Assembly (NCBI GenBank): GCA_016432465.1
Contig: CP066690.1
Coordinates: 526,823-590,822 of the forward strand
Reading direction: 5' to 3'
Source of the DNA: Candidatus Sungiibacteriota bacterium
Lineage (GTDB): Bacteria > Patescibacteriota > Minisyncoccia > Sungbacterales > HO2-52-23
DNA: 64,000 nt
In this document: piece after piece, positions 3,349 to 50,998 of the stretch
Layout: every line of letters starts with the position of its first letter
Numbering within the stretch: position 1 is the stretch's first letter
Program-made: the position numbers and the translations under genes
Notes under the pieces: generated by a model
What the model saw: only the letters and a program-made list of their open reading frames with translations
Told to the model about the DNA's origin: nothing
Database searches by the model: none

Positions 3349-3648
3349 ATGATAAAAAACAAACAATACGAAGGCGAGGTGGTTGTTAAAAATGTACCTC
3401 CAAATTTCAGGAAAGAACTCTTGAATCTTATTGAAAATATGGGAGAGCGCGCAATGCGCCGCGATGTTTTGGACAGAGTTTTAGATTTAAGATTTAAGGA
3501 TAAAGATTTAAGAATCACGACCTCTGAAAATCAGCTTGCCCAAAAAATCGCCCTCAAGATTCAGGAAGTTTTTAAAAATAAGATAGAGAAAAAGATTCGT
3601 CGGGGGAAAGAAGGAGGGGTGTCCAGCGTCCTTGTTGACTTTTTATAA
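3349..3648 (+). CDS. hypothetical protein (start uncertain; frame is open upstream to 3208 without a canonical start)
   Basis: ORF with basic C-terminus. The upstream in-frame stretch encodes CPHG...CPAH but has no ATG/GTG/TTG. Confidence 0.4.
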   Translation: MIKNKQYEGEVVVKNVPPNFRKELLNLIENMGERAMRRDVLDRVLDLRFKDKDLRITTSENQLAQKIALKIQEVFKNKIEKKIRRGKEGGVSSVLVDFL

Positions 3649-3693
3649 AGAGTCCGGTAGCCTACAGACAGGTTCTTTTATCCGAGGTTTGAG

Positions 3694-4104
3694 ATGCGAA
3701 AACTTCTATCAATATTTTTGGCTGTTGCGCTTTTTGCGGCACCTTCTTTAGGAGAAGCTAGGTCCCTTGAGCTTCGTGCATACGAGTTTTACGAAAATGT
3801 AGTTAACGGTGACTATGATGACGTCTGGGATATGTTGACGACAGCGATTCAGCAGGATATCTCACAAGAAGATTTTATCCGTGAGCTTGAAGCGTTCTTT
3901 GAAGAAACGGATTTTAACTACGACAACCTGGAAATTGTAGAACAAAGGGGAAATTACGCTGTCACGGAGGCAATAGTAACCCTGTCCTCAGAAAAATTTT
4001 ATAAATCATTCTGTGAGAAGACGCTGTGGGTGCGGCGGGGAAATAGTTGGTATGTTGCTGACGCAAACTTAAGGTGTGATTACGACCCATTGGCCGGCAG
4101 ATAG
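3694..4104 (+). CDS. secreted hypothetical protein
   Basis: N-terminal signal peptide MRKLLSIFLAVALFAAPSLGEA. Terminator directly downstream. Confidence 0.6.
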   Translation: MRKLLSIFLAVALFAAPSLGEARSLELRAYEFYENVVNGDYDDVWDMLTTAIQQDISQEDFIRELEAFFEETDFNYDNLEIVEQRGNYAVTEAIVTLSSEKFYKSFCEKTLWVRRGNSWYVADANLRCDYDPLAGR

Positions 4105-13570: not shown

Positions 13571-14335
13571 ATGGATTCAACCACACTCCAAACATTATTT
13601 ATTGCGCTTGCGGTTGGTGTTGCCTCGGGAAGCATCGGGTCTTTCATAATTTTGAAACGGATGGCGCTGGTGGGAGATGCGCTCTCGCACGTTGCCCTGC
13701 CCGGCATTGCTCTTGCCCTTGCTTACCATGCTGACCCGTTTTTTGGCGTGCTTATTTTTCTCCTATTGGCTGCGGTGTTGATTTGGTTTTTGGAAGGCAA
13801 GACTAAACTCCCGACGGATGCTATAGTGGGGCTTTTATTTACCGCCAGTCTTGCTGTTGGAATTTTAACCATTCCCGATACTGAAATTCTTGAGTCTCTT
13901 TTTGGGACGTTTCCTATTTTCCAGCCGTTTGTTTTTTTTCTGGTACTTGGCGCCGCACTTCTTTTGAGTATTGCCAGTTTTCTATTTGCGAGACGCTTTC
14001 TTTTTGCGATTGTGTCGCCGGAGCTTTCCCGCGTTGAAGGCGGGGGAAGGCGCTTTGACCTCTTTTTGCTTCTAATTTTCTCTTTTGTGGTGGCCCTGGG
14101 CATCAAACTTGCGGGCACACTGCTTATGGGGGCTCTTACCATAATTCCCGCCGCTACTGCTAAAAACATCAGCTTGAGCACCAAAGGGTATATGTTTTGG
14201 AGCGCGTTTCTCGGGGGGGCGGTTTCTGTAGTGGGAGCGTTTTTGGCTTTACGCCTCGGACTTCTGCCCGGTCCGACAATTATACTTCTGGGCGTGGGTT
14301 TTTTCCTTGTGTCACTATTTTTTGCAAGAAAATAA
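13571..14335 (+). CDS. ABC transporter permease (ABC-3/ZnuB-like metal permease)
   Basis: About 8 TM helices. Downstream of the ZnuC-like ATPase. Confidence 0.7.
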   Translation: MDSTTLQTLFIALAVGVASGSIGSFIILKRMALVGDALSHVALPGIALALAYHADPFFGVLIFLLLAAVLIWFLEGKTKLPTDAIVGLLFTASLAVGILTIPDTEILESLFGTFPIFQPFVFFLVLGAALLLSIASFLFARRFLFAIVSPELSRVEGGGRRFDLFLLLIFSFVVALGIKLAGTLLMGALTIIPAATAKNISLSTKGYMFWSAFLGGAVSVVGAFLALRLGLLPGPTIILLGVGFFLVSLFFARK

Positions 14336-14341
14336 CCCCTC

Positions 14342-14365
14342 CGGCGAAGGGGAGGTATTCAGTTG
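14342..14365. terminator. bidirectional terminator hairpin (CCTCCCC/GGAGGGG-like stem; U-rich on minus strand)
   Basis: cccctccggcgaaggggagg, flanked by aaaataa on + (UUAUUUU on the minus transcript) and a tattcagttgtttg tail on +. Confidence 0.45.
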
Positions 14366-14447
14366 TTTGCACACTTACTAACGATCGGTTTTAAGTGTAC
14401 AAATCAGGAAACCATACACGTAGCGAAGCGGCGTATGGGGGAGGAGG

Positions 14448-14792
14448 TCATTTTATAGACTCCAGCAACTTTTGAAATACAGGCGGATGCTGCTCGGCAA
14501 GCTCTGCTAAAATTTTTCGGTCAAGCTGAATGTTTTTTTTGTGCAATCCTGCGAAAAATTTACTATAGGATAGGCCCTGCGCCCGGACAGCGGCGTTAAT
14601 TTTTGTCTGCCAAAGCCGGCGAAAATCGCGTTTACGCTGTTTCCTTCCCACGAAAGCGTGGGGCCAAGCGTGCAAAAGCGCCTCGCGCGCGAGACGTTCT
14701 TTTGATTTTCTGCCCCAGCGAAAACCCTTGGCGTATTTTAAAAGCTTCTCCCGTTTTTTGTGGGCGATAACGCCGCGCTTTACTCGTGTCAT
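14448..14792 (-). CDS. rplT: 50S ribosomal protein L20
   Basis: MTRVKRGVIAHKKREKLLKYAKGFRWGRK..., typical L20. Confidence 0.9.
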   Translation of the reverse strand: MTRVKRGVIAHKKREKLLKYAKGFRWGRKSKERLAREALLHAWPHAFVGRKQRKRDFRRLWQTKINAAVRAQGLSYSKFFAGLHKKNIQLDRKILAELAEQHPPVFQKLLESIK

Positions 14793-32319: not shown

Positions 32320-34742
32320 GATACGACCCCAAAACAATTGAAAAAAAGTGGCAAGCGCGCTGGCTCAAAGAAAAAACTTATGAGCCGGATTTAAGGCGCG
32401 CCAAAAAGCCCTTTTATAATCTTATGATGTTTCCGTACCCATCGGCCGAGGGTCTGCATGTGGGTAATATGTACGCCTTTGTGGGTGCGGATATTTACGG
32501 ACGGTTTAAGCGCATGCAGGGATACGACGTTTTTGAGCCAATAGGGCTTGATGGTTTTGGGATTCACTCCGAAAATTATGCGTTAAAGATAAAGAAGCAT
32601 CCGGCGGACCAAGCCAAAGTTTCAGAGAAAAATTTTTATCGGCAACTGGAGACGGTTGGCAATGGTTTTGCGTGGCAGGAAAAATTGGAAACTTACGACC
32701 CCGATTACTACAGATGGACTCAATGGATTTTTATACAAATGTATAAACACGGCCTTGCTTATCGTAAGAAAGCACAAGTCAATTGGTGTCCCTCCTGCCT
32801 TACTGTTTTGGCAGATGAGCAAGTACTTGCAGGAGAATGTGAGAGATGCGAGACCGAGGTGATTAAAAAAGAACTTGAGCAATGGTTTTTTAAGATTACG
32901 GATTATGCCGAGCGACTTTTAAAAAACTTGGATACTCTGGATTGGTCCGAGAGGATAAAAATCGCCCAGCGAAATTGGATTGGAAAAAGCGAGGGCGCGC
33001 TCCTTCGCTTTAATGTCAGATGTCAGATGTCAGATGTCAGATGTCCGTCTGTTGAAGTTTTCACCACCCGCCCTGATACTCTTTTCGGCGCGACCTACAT
33101 AGTGTTGGGGCCGGAACACCAACTTATATCAAAAATTAGAAATCAAATATCAAATATTAAAGAAGTTGAAGGGTACATTACAGGAGCTAAAACCAAGACT
33201 GATGAGGAGCGGATTGCGGAGGGTAAAGAAAAAAACGGGGTGGAGCTAAAAGGAATAAAAGCGACAAATCCGGCAAACGGCGAAGAAATTCCTATTTGGG
33301 TTGCAGATTATGTGTTGGGGAATGTGGGCACCGGAGCGATTATGGCGGTTCCGGCGCATGATGAACGCGATATGGAATTTGCTAAAAAATTTAATTTGCC
33401 CGTTAGCAACGCGCCGTTTGTTGATAAGGAAGAAATTGTCAGAAGGGTTGGGGGCAAAAAGACCGTAAATTATAGGCTTCGCGACTGGCTTATTTCCCGA
33501 CAGAGATATTGGGGACCGCCGATTCCGATGATTTACTGTCATAAGTGCGGTTGGATACCTGTTCCGGAGAAGGATTTGCCGGTGCGGCTTCCTTATATAA
33601 AAGAATTCAGACCAACAGGAACTGAAAAATCACCCCTGGCGCTGGTAGAAAAATTTTATAAGGTTCGTTGTCCAAAATGTAAGTCGTGGGCAAGACGAGA
33701 AACCGATGTTTCCGATACATTTTTGGATTCCGCGTGGTATTATATCGGCTACCTCATGGCGGCCTACGATTGGAAATTAGAAATTGGAAATTTGAAATTA
33801 CAGGAAGCCATGCGCAAATGGCTTCCGGTTGATATGTATATCGGCGGCGCCGAGCATGCGGTATTGCATCTTTTATATGTGAGATTTCTCGCGATGGCCT
33901 TTCGTGATTGGGGCTTAACTCTTTTTGAGGAACCATTTAAAAAATTCCGGGCGCACGGACTTTTGATCAGGGATGGCGCCAAAATGTCAAAATCGCGCGG
34001 CAACGTGGTGAACCCGGATGAATATATCCGCGCCTATGGCGCGGATGCCCTGCGGATGTATTTAATGTTTTTGGGGCCGTTTGAGCAGGGAGGGGATTTT
34101 CGGGATGACGGCATCAGGGGGATTACGAGGTTTCTTGAAAGGGCGTGGCGGTTTTGTTCGTCATACAAGGAGAGAAAGACGACTCCAATACACGAATTTC
34201 ACTCGAATGATTCGAATAATTCGGGTGCATTAGAGTATTTGAGTCGCATTCTACATAAAACCATCAAAAAAGTTACCGAGGATATTGAAGGTTTGCAGTA
34301 CAATACGGCGATATCGGCGTTAATGATTCTGCTGAATAAGTTTGAAGAAAGTCCGGAGGCTGTCACCAAGGAGCATGTTGCGGTTTTTCTTAGGCTTCTT
34401 GCGCCGTTTGCGCCGTTTATCAGCGAAGAGTTGTGGTCCCGATTTTTTGCGAACAAAAAATCGGGGATCCTCGATTCGCGAAGCGAATCGGGACATTCAT
34501 TTCATTCAATCCACCACGAGTCGTGGCCAAAGTATAATCCTAAGTTCGTTAAAGAAGAAACTTTTGAACTGGTAATACAAGTGAACGGTAAAGTGCGCGG
34601 CCGCGTTACTTTGCCGATTGGCGCGAGCGAGGAAGATGCAAAAAAGGCGGCTCTGGGTCCGGATTCGGTCAGGAAATATGTGATAGGAGATCCGCGAAAA
34701 GTCATTTTCGTGCCGAATAAGCTTATCAATTTTGTGGTTTAA
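32316..34742 (+). CDS. leuS: leucyl-tRNA synthetase
   Basis: HIGH-region HVGN, KMSKS, TTRPDT, CP1 editing-domain blocks. Confidence 0.9.
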   Translation: MRYDPKTIEKKWQARWLKEKTYEPDLRRAKKPFYNLMMFPYPSAEGLHVGNMYAFVGADIYGRFKRMQGYDVFEPIGLDGFGIHSENYALKIKKHPADQAKVSEKNFYRQLETVGNGFAWQEKLETYDPDYYRWTQWIFIQMYKHGLAYRKKAQVNWCPSCLTVLADEQVLAGECERCETEVIKKELEQWFFKITDYAERLLKNLDTLDWSERIKIAQRNWIGKSEGALLRFNVRCQMSDVRCPSVEVFTTRPDTLFGATYIVLGPEHQLISKIRNQISNIKEVEGYITGAKTKTDEERIAEGKEKNGVELKGIKATNPANGEEIPIWVADYVLGNVGTGAIMAVPAHDERDMEFAKKFNLPVSNAPFVDKEEIVRRVGGKKTVNYRLRDWLISRQRYWGPPIPMIYCHKCGWIPVPEKDLPVRLPYIKEFRPTGTEKSPLALVEKFYKVRCPKCKSWARRETDVSDTFLDSAWYYIGYLMAAYDWKLEIGNLKLQEAMRKWLPVDMYIGGAEHAVLHLLYVRFLAMAFRDWGLTLFEEPFKKFRAHGLLIRDGAKMSKSRGNVVNPDEYIRAYGADALRMYLMFLGPFEQGGDFRDDGIRGITRFLERAWRFCSSYKERKTTPIHEFHSNDSNNSGALEYLSRILHKTIKKVTEDIEGLQYNTAISALMILLNKFEESPEAVTKEHVAVFLRLLAPFAPFISEELWSRFFANKKSGILDSRSESGHSFHSIHHESWPKYNPKFVKEETFELVIQVNGKVRGRVTLPIGASEEDAKKAALGPDSVRKYVIGDPRKVIFVPNKLINFVV
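33013..33045. repeat. (ATGTCAG)x4 heptamer tandem repeat in frame inside leuS
   Basis: atgtcagatgtcagatgtcagatgtcagatgtc. Encodes NVRCQMSDVRC. Confidence 0.8.
33773..33800. repeat. (GAAATTN)x4 heptamer tandem repeat in frame inside leuS
   Basis: gaaattagaaattggaaatttgaaatta. Encodes KLEIGNLKL. Confidence 0.8.
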
Positions 34743-34743
34743 A

Positions 34744-34784
34744 AACATTCTAACATTCTGCAGAATGTTAGAATGTTTTTTGCT
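34744..34784 (+). terminator. rho-independent terminator (17-bp perfect palindrome + TTTTTT)
   Basis: AACATTCTAACATTCTG / CAGAATGTTAGAATGTT, then a T-run. Confidence 0.8.
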
Positions 34785-49963: not shown

Positions 49964-50188
49964 TTATTGCTCTTTGTCCGGGACTGCCCGATGAATTGTG
50001 ATATATTCGTCAGGTTCCAAAAGACGGCCCCCGATGACCTCCTTCAAAAAAGCGCATTTTCCAAGACGTTCGGGCGTATACTTTCCGCCGACCTCTGGGC
50101 CGCGCGCCTTTTCAATGGCCTGCTGGATAAAAGTAATCATAGCCTCTACAGACTCCACAAACCAAGGGCATGTTATTTCTACCTGCAC
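49964..50188 (-). CDS. hypothetical small protein
   Basis: 74-aa ORF immediately downstream of palindrome copy A. Confidence 0.45.
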   Translation of the reverse strand: MQVEITCPWFVESVEAMITFIQQAIEKARGPEVGGKYTPERLGKCAFLKEVIGGRLLEPDEYITIHRAVPDKEQ

Positions 50189-50206
50189 GTATTTCCCCCT
50201 TTTTAC

Positions 50207-50248
50207 TTATTACAACATTTATATCGATCGTTTTAGATGTTGTAATAA
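50207..50248. promoter_or_regulatory. 42-bp palindromic operator-like site, copy A (TTATTACAACAT-N18-ATGTTGTAATAA, spacer contains CGATCG)
   Basis: Read directly. 19 nt upstream of the minus-strand gene starting at 50188. Confidence 0.5.
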
Positions 50249-50259
50249 ACTTTTTCTCT

Positions 50260-50811
50260 CTAAATTGTGCCAGTCGCACTGAGCGATACGATATGGATAT
50301 ATTTGCTCATACGGCGGGCGTCAATACTTTTAATAAGCGTTTCGGGCAGGGGGCGTTTCCCAATGTAAACGCTTTTTTGAAGCGGCTCGAATCCGCAGGC
50401 TAGAAGTTCCTTACGCAGCCACGAGCGTTTTTCTTTCTCGTCCTCGGGGATATCAAAGGTAACAAGACGCGTCAGGCCGTCAGCGGGTGGGAGTATATGC
50501 GTCATCCTTGGTTCTGCCGGTTTTGTATCTTTTAACTTGTGCAGCCCTTTCTTGGTGATGCGCCACCTTGCTTTTTTCTTAGGACCCGCACATACCACCA
50601 AACCTTCTCTTTTGAGGCGATTTAGAATACTTGAAAGCGAGTGTTTGGCTTCGGGGACGGAGGAGTATCGTACGTGGTCGAGTCCGAACAAACCGCGGAT
50701 TAATCCCGTACCCGGGTAGTATTTAGGGAAGAAGGCGTCGATCATAAGCGGTCCAGCTTCTGCCAGCTGATCAAGAAGAGCGCGTGTTATGGATTTTAAC
50801 ACCTTTTTCAT
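50260..50811 (-). CDS. PaaX-like transcriptional regulator (N-terminal winged helix + C-terminal Cas2-fold-like domain)
   Basis: The C-terminal LVTFDIPEDEKEKRSWLRKELLACGFEPLQKSVYIG resembles a PaaX_C/Cas2-like fold. The N-terminus is wHTH-like. Confidence 0.5.
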   Translation of the reverse strand: MKKVLKSITRALLDQLAEAGPLMIDAFFPKYYPGTGLIRGLFGLDHVRYSSVPEAKHSLSSILNRLKREGLVVCAGPKKKARWRITKKGLHKLKDTKPAEPRMTHILPPADGLTRLVTFDIPEDEKEKRSWLRKELLACGFEPLQKSVYIGKRPLPETLIKSIDARRMSKYIHIVSLSATGTI

Positions 50812-50830
50812 GATATTTCCCCAGCATATT

Positions 50831-50872
50831 TTATTACAACATTATAAACGATCGCTAGGAATGTTGTAATAA
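50831..50872. promoter_or_regulatory. 42-bp palindromic operator-like site, copy B (TTATTACAACAT-N18-ATGTTGTAATAA, spacer contains CGATCG)
   Basis: Read directly. 20 nt upstream of the regulator gene start at 50811. Confidence 0.5.
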
Positions 50873-50998
50873 AATTATAATGGGCGTGGCACGGAATGTA
50901 AATAGCAAGGAAGGCAAGTTTGGATTTTTTATCCAGACGCGGGTCTACCCAGGAGGCATGATCATACTCGGGCGAGCCTCGCTGCCCCCTTGTATATA

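Follow-up and report, generated by a model that had tools for sequence, protein, structure and literature searches.

Paired CGATCG-centered palindromes around the gene of a two-domain PaaX-like protein in Patescibacteria

PaaX of Escherichia coli binds the inverted repeat TGATTC-N27-GAATCA and represses its own gene through steric hindrance, by excluding RNA polymerase (PMC9493321). The C-terminal domain of PaaX has been assigned to phenylacetyl-CoA binding, its Cas2-like domain has been described as a dimerization motif, and no PaaX-DNA complex had been solved as of a 2022 review (PMC9493321). The present work concerns a likely relative of this repressor, herein referred to as mini-PaaX, encoded in a 64,000-nucleotide stretch of DNA (herein the window) from the uncultivated, ultra-small Candidatus Sungiibacteriota bacterium (Patescibacteriota; GenBank assembly GCA_016432465.1, contig CP066690.1, positions 526,823 to 590,822). 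The gene for this 183-amino-acid (aa) protein lies between two near-identical palindromes, and the same layout was found in most of the related loci that could be evaluated. To our knowledge, gene regulation in Patescibacteria is largely uncharted.

Two further groups of described systems have a comparable layout. Repressors that act by DNA looping between paired operators include lambda CI, whose operators OL and OR flank the cI gene, coliphage 186 CI (FL and FR), GalR, and LacI. Palindrome-flanked genes are also found in mobile contexts, such as those of the REP (repetitive extragenic palindromic)-associated tyrosine transposases (RAYT) and of the Xer-dependent pdif modules.

Paired palindromes in the window and in related loci

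Exact matches to TTATTACAACAT-N18-ATGTTGTAATAA were found at positions 50207-50248 and 50831-50872 and nowhere else in the window. With up to three mismatches allowed, there were still only two matches, against 0.00 expected from 100 shuffles of the window. The 12-nt half-site, even with one mismatch, was found in only four places in the 64 kb, all of them in the two palindromes, against 0.45 expected. The upstream palindrome, copy B (50831..50872, no strand assigned), reads TTATTACAACAT-TATAAA-CGATCG-CTAGGA-ATGTTGTAATAA and is the proposed primary operator; its complementarity extends over 16-nt arms. The downstream palindrome, copy A (50207..50248, no strand assigned), reads TTATTACAACAT-TTATAT-CGATCG-TTTTAG-ATGTTGTAATAA and is the proposed second operator. 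CGATCG forms the exact center of both spacers, and the two copies are 624 bp apart. The open reading frame (ORF) between them, starting with ATG, is the regulator gene (50260..50811, minus strand). Thus, the original prediction of two near-identical 42-bp palindromes bracketing a 183-aa minus-strand gene was borne out, as were the coordinates that it gave for this gene and for an orphan 74-aa ORF (49964..50188, minus strand, GTG start).

The two palindromes are placed alike relative to the following start codons. Copy B ends 19 nt before the regulator ATG. Copy A is separated by 11 nt from the preceding regulator stop codon and by 18 nt from the GTG start of the 74-aa ORF that follows. The distance from palindrome center to start codon is 41 nt in both cases. 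Each palindrome is followed by the ribosome-binding-like GGGG(G)AAATA and then by the start codon. Before the regulator ATG, the ribosome-binding-like sequence was read as GGGGAAATA (50814..50822, minus strand), and the 74-aa ORF has its own, GGGGGAAATA.

A profile search for the protein family returned 5174 clusters (50% identity) at E<=1e-3 and 2088 clusters at E<=1e-10. Most of the best 150 listed matches are 170-210 aa long. The loci analyzed here (numbered L001 and onwards) comprise 42 from genome assemblies, collected by a scan with a 12-sequence alignment, and the contigs of three close relatives, with protein identities of 79% (L043), 78%, and 60% (L045). Most of the 42 assembly loci are labeled as Patescibacteria lineages, and a few distant matches stand under other taxon labels. 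The family is large and chromosomal and belongs to Patescibacteria (Candidate Phyla Radiation).

In a scan that was agnostic to the core sequence, a long palindrome adjoining the gene was found in nearly every locus, and its center was almost always CGATCG. The exceptions were CTATAG, found in one small clade, and one-base variants, found in a few loci. Under explicit criteria, palindromes were found on both sides of 35 of 48 regulator ORFs. This count was corrected for L030, where two ORFs represent one frameshifted gene, for L015, where the upstream site is 186 nt away, and for L043, where the upstream site is cut by the contig end yet visible. In total, the 45 loci and the window contain 47 regulator genes, of which 45 are evaluable on both sides, and 38 of these 45 are bracketed by palindromes. 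In L030 (2768-3399), the split of the regulator into ORFs of 83 aa and 123 aa is apparently due to a frameshift or an error in sequencing, and both palindromes are intact.

The center of the upstream palindrome precedes the start codon by a median of 35 nt (interquartile range 27-49), and that of the downstream palindrome follows the stop codon by a median of 36 nt (interquartile range 22-46). The centers of paired palindromes are 585-835 bp apart (35 cassettes). All three close relatives retain both palindromes despite different downstream neighbors; related genomes have thus kept the palindromes together with the genes.

The 242 kb of loci contain 113 CGATCG hexamers, and 73 of these have symmetric flanks, compared with 1.3% of random centers. 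Symmetry is 96-98% at positions +-1-3 from the dyad, 60-77% at +-4-9, and again 81-98% at +-10-17. Past about +-18 it drops, to 73% at +-18 and 54-55% at +-20-21, and is lower further out. This profile is a predicted bipartite footprint on double-stranded DNA, with an invariant core and arms about 1.5 helical turns out. In L040 (550-3295), two paralogous regulators 1.5 kb apart each have their own palindrome pair with distinct arms; the cores in this locus are CTATAG, with CGATCG at one site, and the second and fifth core positions can therefore vary within the site pair of one regulator.

The arms of the upstream and downstream palindromes match each other within a locus (identity 0.77 vs 0.41 between loci). 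A longer duplication reaching beyond the palindromes was considered and rejected, the flanks outside them being no more alike within loci (0.42-0.45) than between loci (0.41), with L036 as the sole exception. In a comparison table of arms and proteins, the arms diverge gradually alongside the protein. Regulators with the same putative recognition helix have common arm motifs: KHS[LF]SS is found with CAA[CT]AT, and NTVSVTL with TTAACA. The proteins within each of these groups are also close relatives.

Additional palindromes with the same arms were found beyond the bracketing pairs. In the search for further targets, which covered the window and one metagenome scan, a metagenome contig (L046, OBEQ011407922.1) was found to contain TTTATTACAACAT-N6-CGATCG-N6-ATGTTGTAATAAA at 1831-1875, with the same arms as those of the window. 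This site is located about 40 nt upstream of an unrelated membrane-protein ORF starting at 1915, on a 2-kb contig without a regulator gene, and its sequence suggests that the regulator has targets outside its own cassette. In L010, a same-strand array of four genes including the regulator has same-arm palindromes, TAGTCACAAC...GTTGTGACT, at 2271, 2790, 3490, and 4154, one per intergenic gap; judged by these sites, the array looks like a small local regulon. Several genomes contain two to four paralogues with distinct arms.

Domains and fold of the 183-aa protein

The best-scoring domain of the protein is PF20803 (PaaX_M, the central Cas2-like domain of PaaX), found at residues 110-179 with E 8.4e-14 and 51.9 bits (cut-off 24). 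Two Cas2 models were also matched: PF09827 (E 2.9e-5, 24.6 bits vs a cut-off of 23.8) and, barely passing, TIGR01573 from NCBIfam (27.1 vs 24.5 bits). These Cas2 matches cover about 40 of the 183 residues, with margins of 1-3 bits. The PaaX equivalog model, TIGR02277, failed (17.6 bits vs a cut-off of 264.55). For the N-terminal region, no PaaX N-terminal model was found in Pfam at E<=1, and BLACT_WH was matched weakly, at 0.014. Pfam gave no match to PF08223, the C-terminal domain of PaaX, and the protein ends at residue 183, directly past the Cas2-like domain.

An AlphaFold model of the single chain, built from 39 homologues, has a mean predicted local distance difference test score (pLDDT) of 81. 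The model consists of a winged helix (residues 8-95), a linker, and a ferredoxin-like beta-alpha-beta-beta-alpha-beta fold (residues 114-178). The winged-helix elements are the helices 8-19, 36-42, and 52-68, the wing 72-85, and the helix 87-95. In a Foldseek search of the Protein Data Bank (PDB), PaaX of E. coli W (8a39) was found first and a PaaX-like protein (3l09) second; later matches were Cas2 proteins, aligned to the C-terminal half, and MarR-type winged helices, aligned to the N-terminal half. The alignment to PaaX spans 190 columns, and the template modeling scores are low, about 0.33, because the structural match is domain by domain. Sequence searches of the solved structures in the PDB, with the single protein and with a profile, gave only weak matches (E > 0.1). 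The predicted link to PaaX therefore rests on Pfam together with the comparison of modeled folds. Additionally, an invariant aspartate is found in the Cas2-like FDIPE motif, and the motif WDGKWR-LV-FDIPE of the Cas2-like domain is shared by distant family members.

Judged from the model and the domain matches, the 183-aa protein is probably a two-domain "mini-PaaX," that is, a relative of the PaaX repressor without its effector domain. The N-terminal winged-helix-like region that had been proposed from the sequence was seen in the model, and the proposed resemblance to PaaX and the Cas2 fold agrees with the PF20803 match and with 8a39 as the top fold. One detail required correction: the segment described as the C-domain of PaaX-type regulators is the middle domain of PaaX, and it is C-terminal here because the C-terminal domain of PaaX is absent. 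The lack of both further sites and winged-helix or PaaX similarity had been named as evidence that would speak against the prediction; both were found, the same-arm site of L046 being located away from any regulator gene.

Proposed regulation and rival explanations

From the positions of the sites, mini-PaaX would be an autorepressor that binds long palindromes as a dimer, with the upstream site at its promoter and the downstream site as a second operator; we hold this to be the probable explanation, with appreciable doubt remaining. By analogy with described repressors, we infer DNA binding, repression, dimerization, and looping or roadblock formation. The regulator would dimerize through its Cas2-like domain, and the dimer would bind the whole 42-bp palindrome, with the two winged helices reading the outer arms, centered about 15 bp from the dyad on each side. 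A conserved part of the protein would read, or depend on, the invariant CGATCG center. Binding at the upstream palindrome, which overlaps the putative promoter, would block initiation and result in negative autoregulation. The downstream palindrome would be the second operator of the cassette, most likely binding a second dimer. This dimer could cooperate with the first by looping out the gene of about 620 bp, or it could form a transcription roadblock at the 3' boundary of the gene. In many loci, the window included, the downstream palindrome may additionally act as the operator of a promoter directed into the next gene. Copy A of the window is located on a promoter-like sequence followed by a ribosome-binding-like site, and the 74-aa gene is probably co-repressed.

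Promoter-like sequences were found at both palindromes of the window. A sigma-70-like promoter, TTTACA-17-TATAAT (50874..50902, minus strand), matches the consensus at 11 of 12 positions, and its -10 element is adjacent to the extended arm of copy B or overlaps with it, which predicts a transcription start within the operator. An alternative promoter-like sequence, ATTACA-18-TATAAT (50841..50870, minus strand), is located inside copy B, with the -35 element in one arm and the -10 element at the junction of the spacer and the other arm. Copy A has the analogous ATTACA-17-TATAAA. The autoregulation put forward in the original prediction is thus in keeping with the abutting promoter-like site, with the family-wide upstream palindrome, and with the co-variation of arms and protein. 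Across the loci, promoter-like motifs were found in the vicinity of 21 of the 40 upstream palindromes and of 17 of the 41 downstream ones, vs 14% of random positions; this support is only modest, because the random positions are mostly coding.

Several observations weigh against autorepression through paired operators. By the criteria used here, seven of the 45 evaluable genes lack the full bracket, five having one site and two having none. The protein has no effector or ligand domain for an input signal that would relieve repression, and the position of the promoter relative to the palindrome varies among loci. Additionally, the Spearman correlations of arm distance with domain distance are weak (N-terminal domain, 0.18; C-terminal domain, 0.28; a further value, 0.23) and confounded by phylogeny. 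These correlations do not assign the reading of arms or core to either domain.

Downstream of copy A, the window contains the 74-aa ORF and then a RelA/SpoT-type gene (rel); the other neighbors of the regulator are topA, dprA, and parAB. The codon usage of the 74-aa ORF is gene-like, with a log-likelihood per codon of 0.27 that falls inside the range seen for real genes (0.33 +- 0.11 in 75-codon windows of long genes). No homologue but itself was found in a word-seeded search of 5.8e9 proteins, and the 79%-identical relative L043 lacks the ORF, with unrelated DNA in its place. Homology between the window and L043 is lost at 50203, the outer edge of copy A, and is found again in rel. In this genome, transcription of the ORF probably starts at copy A or passes through it, and the ORF is a plausible local target rather than a conserved part of the cassette. 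The rel gene has its own promoter-like site in the consensus scan and is unlikely to be controlled directly by the regulator. The suggestion of a second operator serving the small gene, and possibly rel, is therefore tenable locally for the small gene, given its codon usage and the 41-nt spacing. It did not hold for the family, as L043 lacks the 74-aa ORF yet retains the downstream palindrome, and it is unlikely for rel, which in L043 is also separated from the palindrome by a convergent gene.

The identical spacing and ribosome-binding-like sequence after copies A and B and the coding appearance of the 74-aa ORF could also mean that the downstream palindrome merely serves as operator of the gene that happens to follow, and that the bracket is a by-product of compact genomes. 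The same-arm sites before each of the four same-strand genes of L010, the promoter-like motifs near downstream palindromes, and the TTGAC-like -35 boxes directly after several of them point in the same direction, and 27 of 38 loci have a co-directional next gene. In the other 11, however, the next gene is convergent, and the downstream palindrome is as symmetric there (17.1 of 21 pairs vs 17.2 in co-directional loci) and matches the upstream arms as well (0.86 vs 0.83). The downstream site is thus kept regardless of the orientation of the neighbor, which assigns it to the regulator cassette. Its distance is tight to the regulator stop codon (22-46 nt) and loose to the start of a co-directional next gene (median 156 nt, interquartile range 69-219). 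Clustering of all neighboring ORFs gave no conserved partner gene, the largest non-regulator cluster being present in 5 of 46 loci. The neighbors are diverse, including DnaE and threonyl-tRNA synthetase (ThrRS), the M48/HtpX protease and a NUDIX hydrolase, ClpB, GrpE-DnaK, KsgA, ComM, LspA, the ribosomal proteins S12 and S7, and extracytoplasmic function (ECF) sigma factors. In L043, a convergent 140-aa gene and then rel follow the palindrome. In L045, bacterial RNase P class A RNA (RF00010, 156 bits) follows it directly (3409-3841) and has its own TTGACT...TATAAT promoter. As the sole role of the downstream site, control of the next gene does not account for the loci with convergent neighbors or for the close coupling to the stop codon, and we consider it rather unlikely. 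Autorepression through an operator pair belonging to the cassette can also be extended to an autonomous, self-insulating palindrome-gene-palindrome module, one of the main transcription-factor systems of Patescibacteria, in which the Cas2-like dimer would sit on CGATCG, the winged helices would read lineage-specific arms, and dimers at the two sites would either loop out the gene or shield it from transcription on both sides. This extension is speculative and, in our judgment, improbable as a whole. It is equally doubtful that the Cas2-like dimer lies on DNA in the manner of the Cas2 dimer that carries the duplex in the Cas1-Cas2 integrase, an analogy on which the extension draws. If the extension were true, Cas2-type DNA handling and PaaX-type repression would be two uses of one ancient DNA-binding dimer, and the family would offer dozens of natural, mutually orthogonal repressor-operator pairs.

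The remaining explanations assign the palindromes or the protein to other processes. The tight symmetric bracket (centers 35 and 36 nt from the gene ends), the lack of any conserved neighbor gene, the invariant FDIPE aspartate, the paralogues with different arms in some genomes, including the tandem cassettes of L040, and the break of the window/L043 homology exactly at the outer edge of copy A would all suit a small mobile or selfish cassette, whose protein would use its Cas2-like domain for nuclease or recombination activity on the palindromes. Such an origin, raised in the original prediction as terminal repeats of an inserted module, is very unlikely, since the position is stable within lineages (topA-regulator-rel, DnaE-regulator-ThrRS, HtpX-regulator-NUDIX, and cysteinyl-tRNA synthetase-regulator-GrpE-DnaK) and no transposase or recombinase was recognized among the 25 commonest of 83 Pfam families of downstream neighbors or among the upstream neighbors sampled. 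The flanks past the palindromes are unduplicated, which gives no target-site duplications, and searches of plasmid, phage, and IMG/VR collections gave no homologues of the regulator. Palindromes are also found away from any regulator gene, and arms diverge gradually alongside the protein. The palindromes could instead be RNA hairpins of the 5' and 3' untranslated regions, serving post-transcriptional autoregulation as terminators, stabilizers, or binding sites of the Cas2-like domain, which resembles an RNA recognition motif (RRM). Both copies fold better than shuffled sequence (z-scores -3.1 and -6.0), RNases occur among the Cas2 and VapD relatives (Foldseek matches 3exc and 9kan), and mismatches in downstream palindromes are G.U-compatible slightly more often than A.C (34 to 20, p 0.076). 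The exact center is, however, the most conserved and most symmetric part, as suits a dimer on duplex DNA and is unneeded in a hairpin loop, which disfavors a role at the RNA level. The stems are AU-rich and weak (-9.9 and -16.6 kcal/mol) without a U tract, the mismatches of upstream palindromes have no strand bias (37 to 29, p 0.39), and transcription probably starts inside the upstream palindrome. Intrinsic terminators at the palindromes were rejected for lack of U tracts and of any enrichment of T-runs past downstream palindromes (5 of 41, vs 8 of 40 upstream palindromes). Selection at the RNA level was likewise not supported, the mismatch test being non-significant and no Rfam family matching the palindromes. 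We regard a hairpin function as highly improbable. A genuine CRISPR-associated Cas2 would agree with the public name of the protein and of some relatives in NCBI and UniRef ("CRISPR-associated endonuclease Cas2"), with the two Cas2 models that pass their cut-offs, and with PADLOC, which gave Cas2 models only, all of them weak. PF20803 outscores these models, which match only a small part of a protein that also has an N-terminal winged helix, and the window has topA, dprA, rel, and parAB as neighbors and no CRISPR-like repeat array. Cas1 was not among the 25 commonest of the 83 downstream-neighbor families in the 45 loci. A true Cas2 is excluded by architecture and context, its probability being negligible, and the "Cas2" names are most likely a family-wide misannotation.

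Other palindromes of the window were also recorded. CGATCG-centered palindromes number three in the 64 kb. The third, at 14361-14404, has different arms, GTTTGCACACTTACTAA-CGATCG-GTTTTAAGTGTACAAAT, with 16 of 24 symmetric pairs, and is located between the convergent 3' ends of a membrane-permease-like gene (13571-14335, plus strand) and rplT (14448-14792, minus strand). No regulator gene adjoins it, and a paralogue encoded in another part of the genome may target it. The CGATCG hexamer is mildly depleted in the window (8 vs 13.0 expected). Stronger depletion of 6-bp palindromes was found for ATGCAT (1 vs 17.8 expected) and for CCTAGG, GCTAGC, and GTCGAC (1 each vs 13.0 expected), which suggests restriction-modification pressure. 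Just past a gene ending at 34742, a perfect palindrome with 20-bp arms, AAAAACATTCTAACATTC-TGCAG-AATGTTAGAATGTTTTT (34740-34780), is followed by T's and looks like an intrinsic terminator; its core is CTGCAG, and its arms, TCTAACAT, resemble arm motifs of the mini-PaaX family.

Significance and comparison with known systems

The loci pair a large protein family with an operator grammar, namely the CGATCG core, the arms at +-10-17 bp, and a site at each end of the gene. This grammar can be scanned for in any genome sequence and tested in E. coli. The bipartite conservation predicts which DNA positions are contacted and leads one to ask whether the Cas2-like dimer itself is in contact with DNA. 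Orthogonal repressor-operator pairs may be available from this family, since arms differ between the paralogues of a single genome. The "Cas2" names carried by a family of 5174 clusters would inflate CRISPR counts in these bacteria.

Among described proteins that share the ferredoxin-like fold, Cas2 and VapD have in common with mini-PaaX the motif LVxFDIPE...QKSVF and the fold matches 3exc, 5zyf, 8ia4, and 9kan. Mini-PaaX differs in the fusion of this fold to a winged helix, resulting in 183 aa vs about 90-100 aa for stand-alone Cas2, and in its context, with no CRISPR array in the window and no cas1 among the 25 commonest downstream-neighbor families.

Mini-PaaX resembles the looping repressors in having two matched operators a few hundred bp apart, one promoter-proximal and one distal, and resembles lambda CI in particular in that the regulator's own gene lies between both operators. 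The spacing of the mini-PaaX pairs is within looping distance, and looping may be supposed by analogy. The folds are unrelated, however, and the mini-PaaX sites are single 42-bp palindromes, the distal one being tied to the stop codon. RAYT and pdif modules likewise have a gene between paired palindromic sites that are recognized by its product or by a recombinase. In contrast to these, mini-PaaX has no transposase or recombinase fold, its palindromes are not dispersed in many copies, and its synteny is stable; unlike in pdif, the arms are 10-17 bp from the center and do not abut a 6-8-bp crossover region.

The heat-shock repressor HrcA, which acts on the controlling inverted repeat of chaperone expression (CIRCE), resembles mini-PaaX only in gene position, the repressor gene being upstream of grpE-dnaK. 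The mini-PaaX gene is directly upstream of grpE-dnaK in L009 (2923-4152), L016 (2914-6136), and L023 (2857-5737), and in L009 and L023 the downstream palindrome is located 55-88 nt before grpE. Other members adjoin clpB (L011, L013, and L022) or the M48/HtpX protease (L004, L005, and L007). A resemblance to CIRCE half-sites is seen in some arms, such as TATAGCACTT of L025. The domain architecture is different, the arm spacing is 18 nt in mini-PaaX vs 9 in CIRCE, and most members are not beside chaperone genes. Control of the heat-shock response or proteostasis by mini-PaaX is possible in some lineages.

PaaX itself (8A39 and 3L09; PF07848, PF20803, and PF08223), the phenylacetyl-CoA-responsive regulator of E. 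coli and Pseudomonas, has a winged helix followed by a Cas2-like domain, a combination that is also seen in the model of mini-PaaX. PaaX binds a widely spaced inverted repeat, TGATTC-N27-GAATCA, and the predicted operator of mini-PaaX, a 12-N18-12 arrangement abutting a promoter-like site, is similar in geometry. Unlike PaaX, mini-PaaX has no C-terminal PaaX domain, and its retrieved loci are almost all from Patescibacteria. No paa genes were found near mini-PaaX in the window, and the neighbors in the 45 loci are diverse housekeeping genes. Its proposed operators have an invariant CGATCG center, and most members have a second such site just past the stop codon. In a literature search that left subscription journals mostly uncovered, so that an earlier report is possible, no description of the two-domain family, the CGATCG core, or the bracket was found. 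The PaaX-type fold, the palindromic operator, and autorepression are of known kinds, whereas the self-bracketing layout and the invariant core are new.

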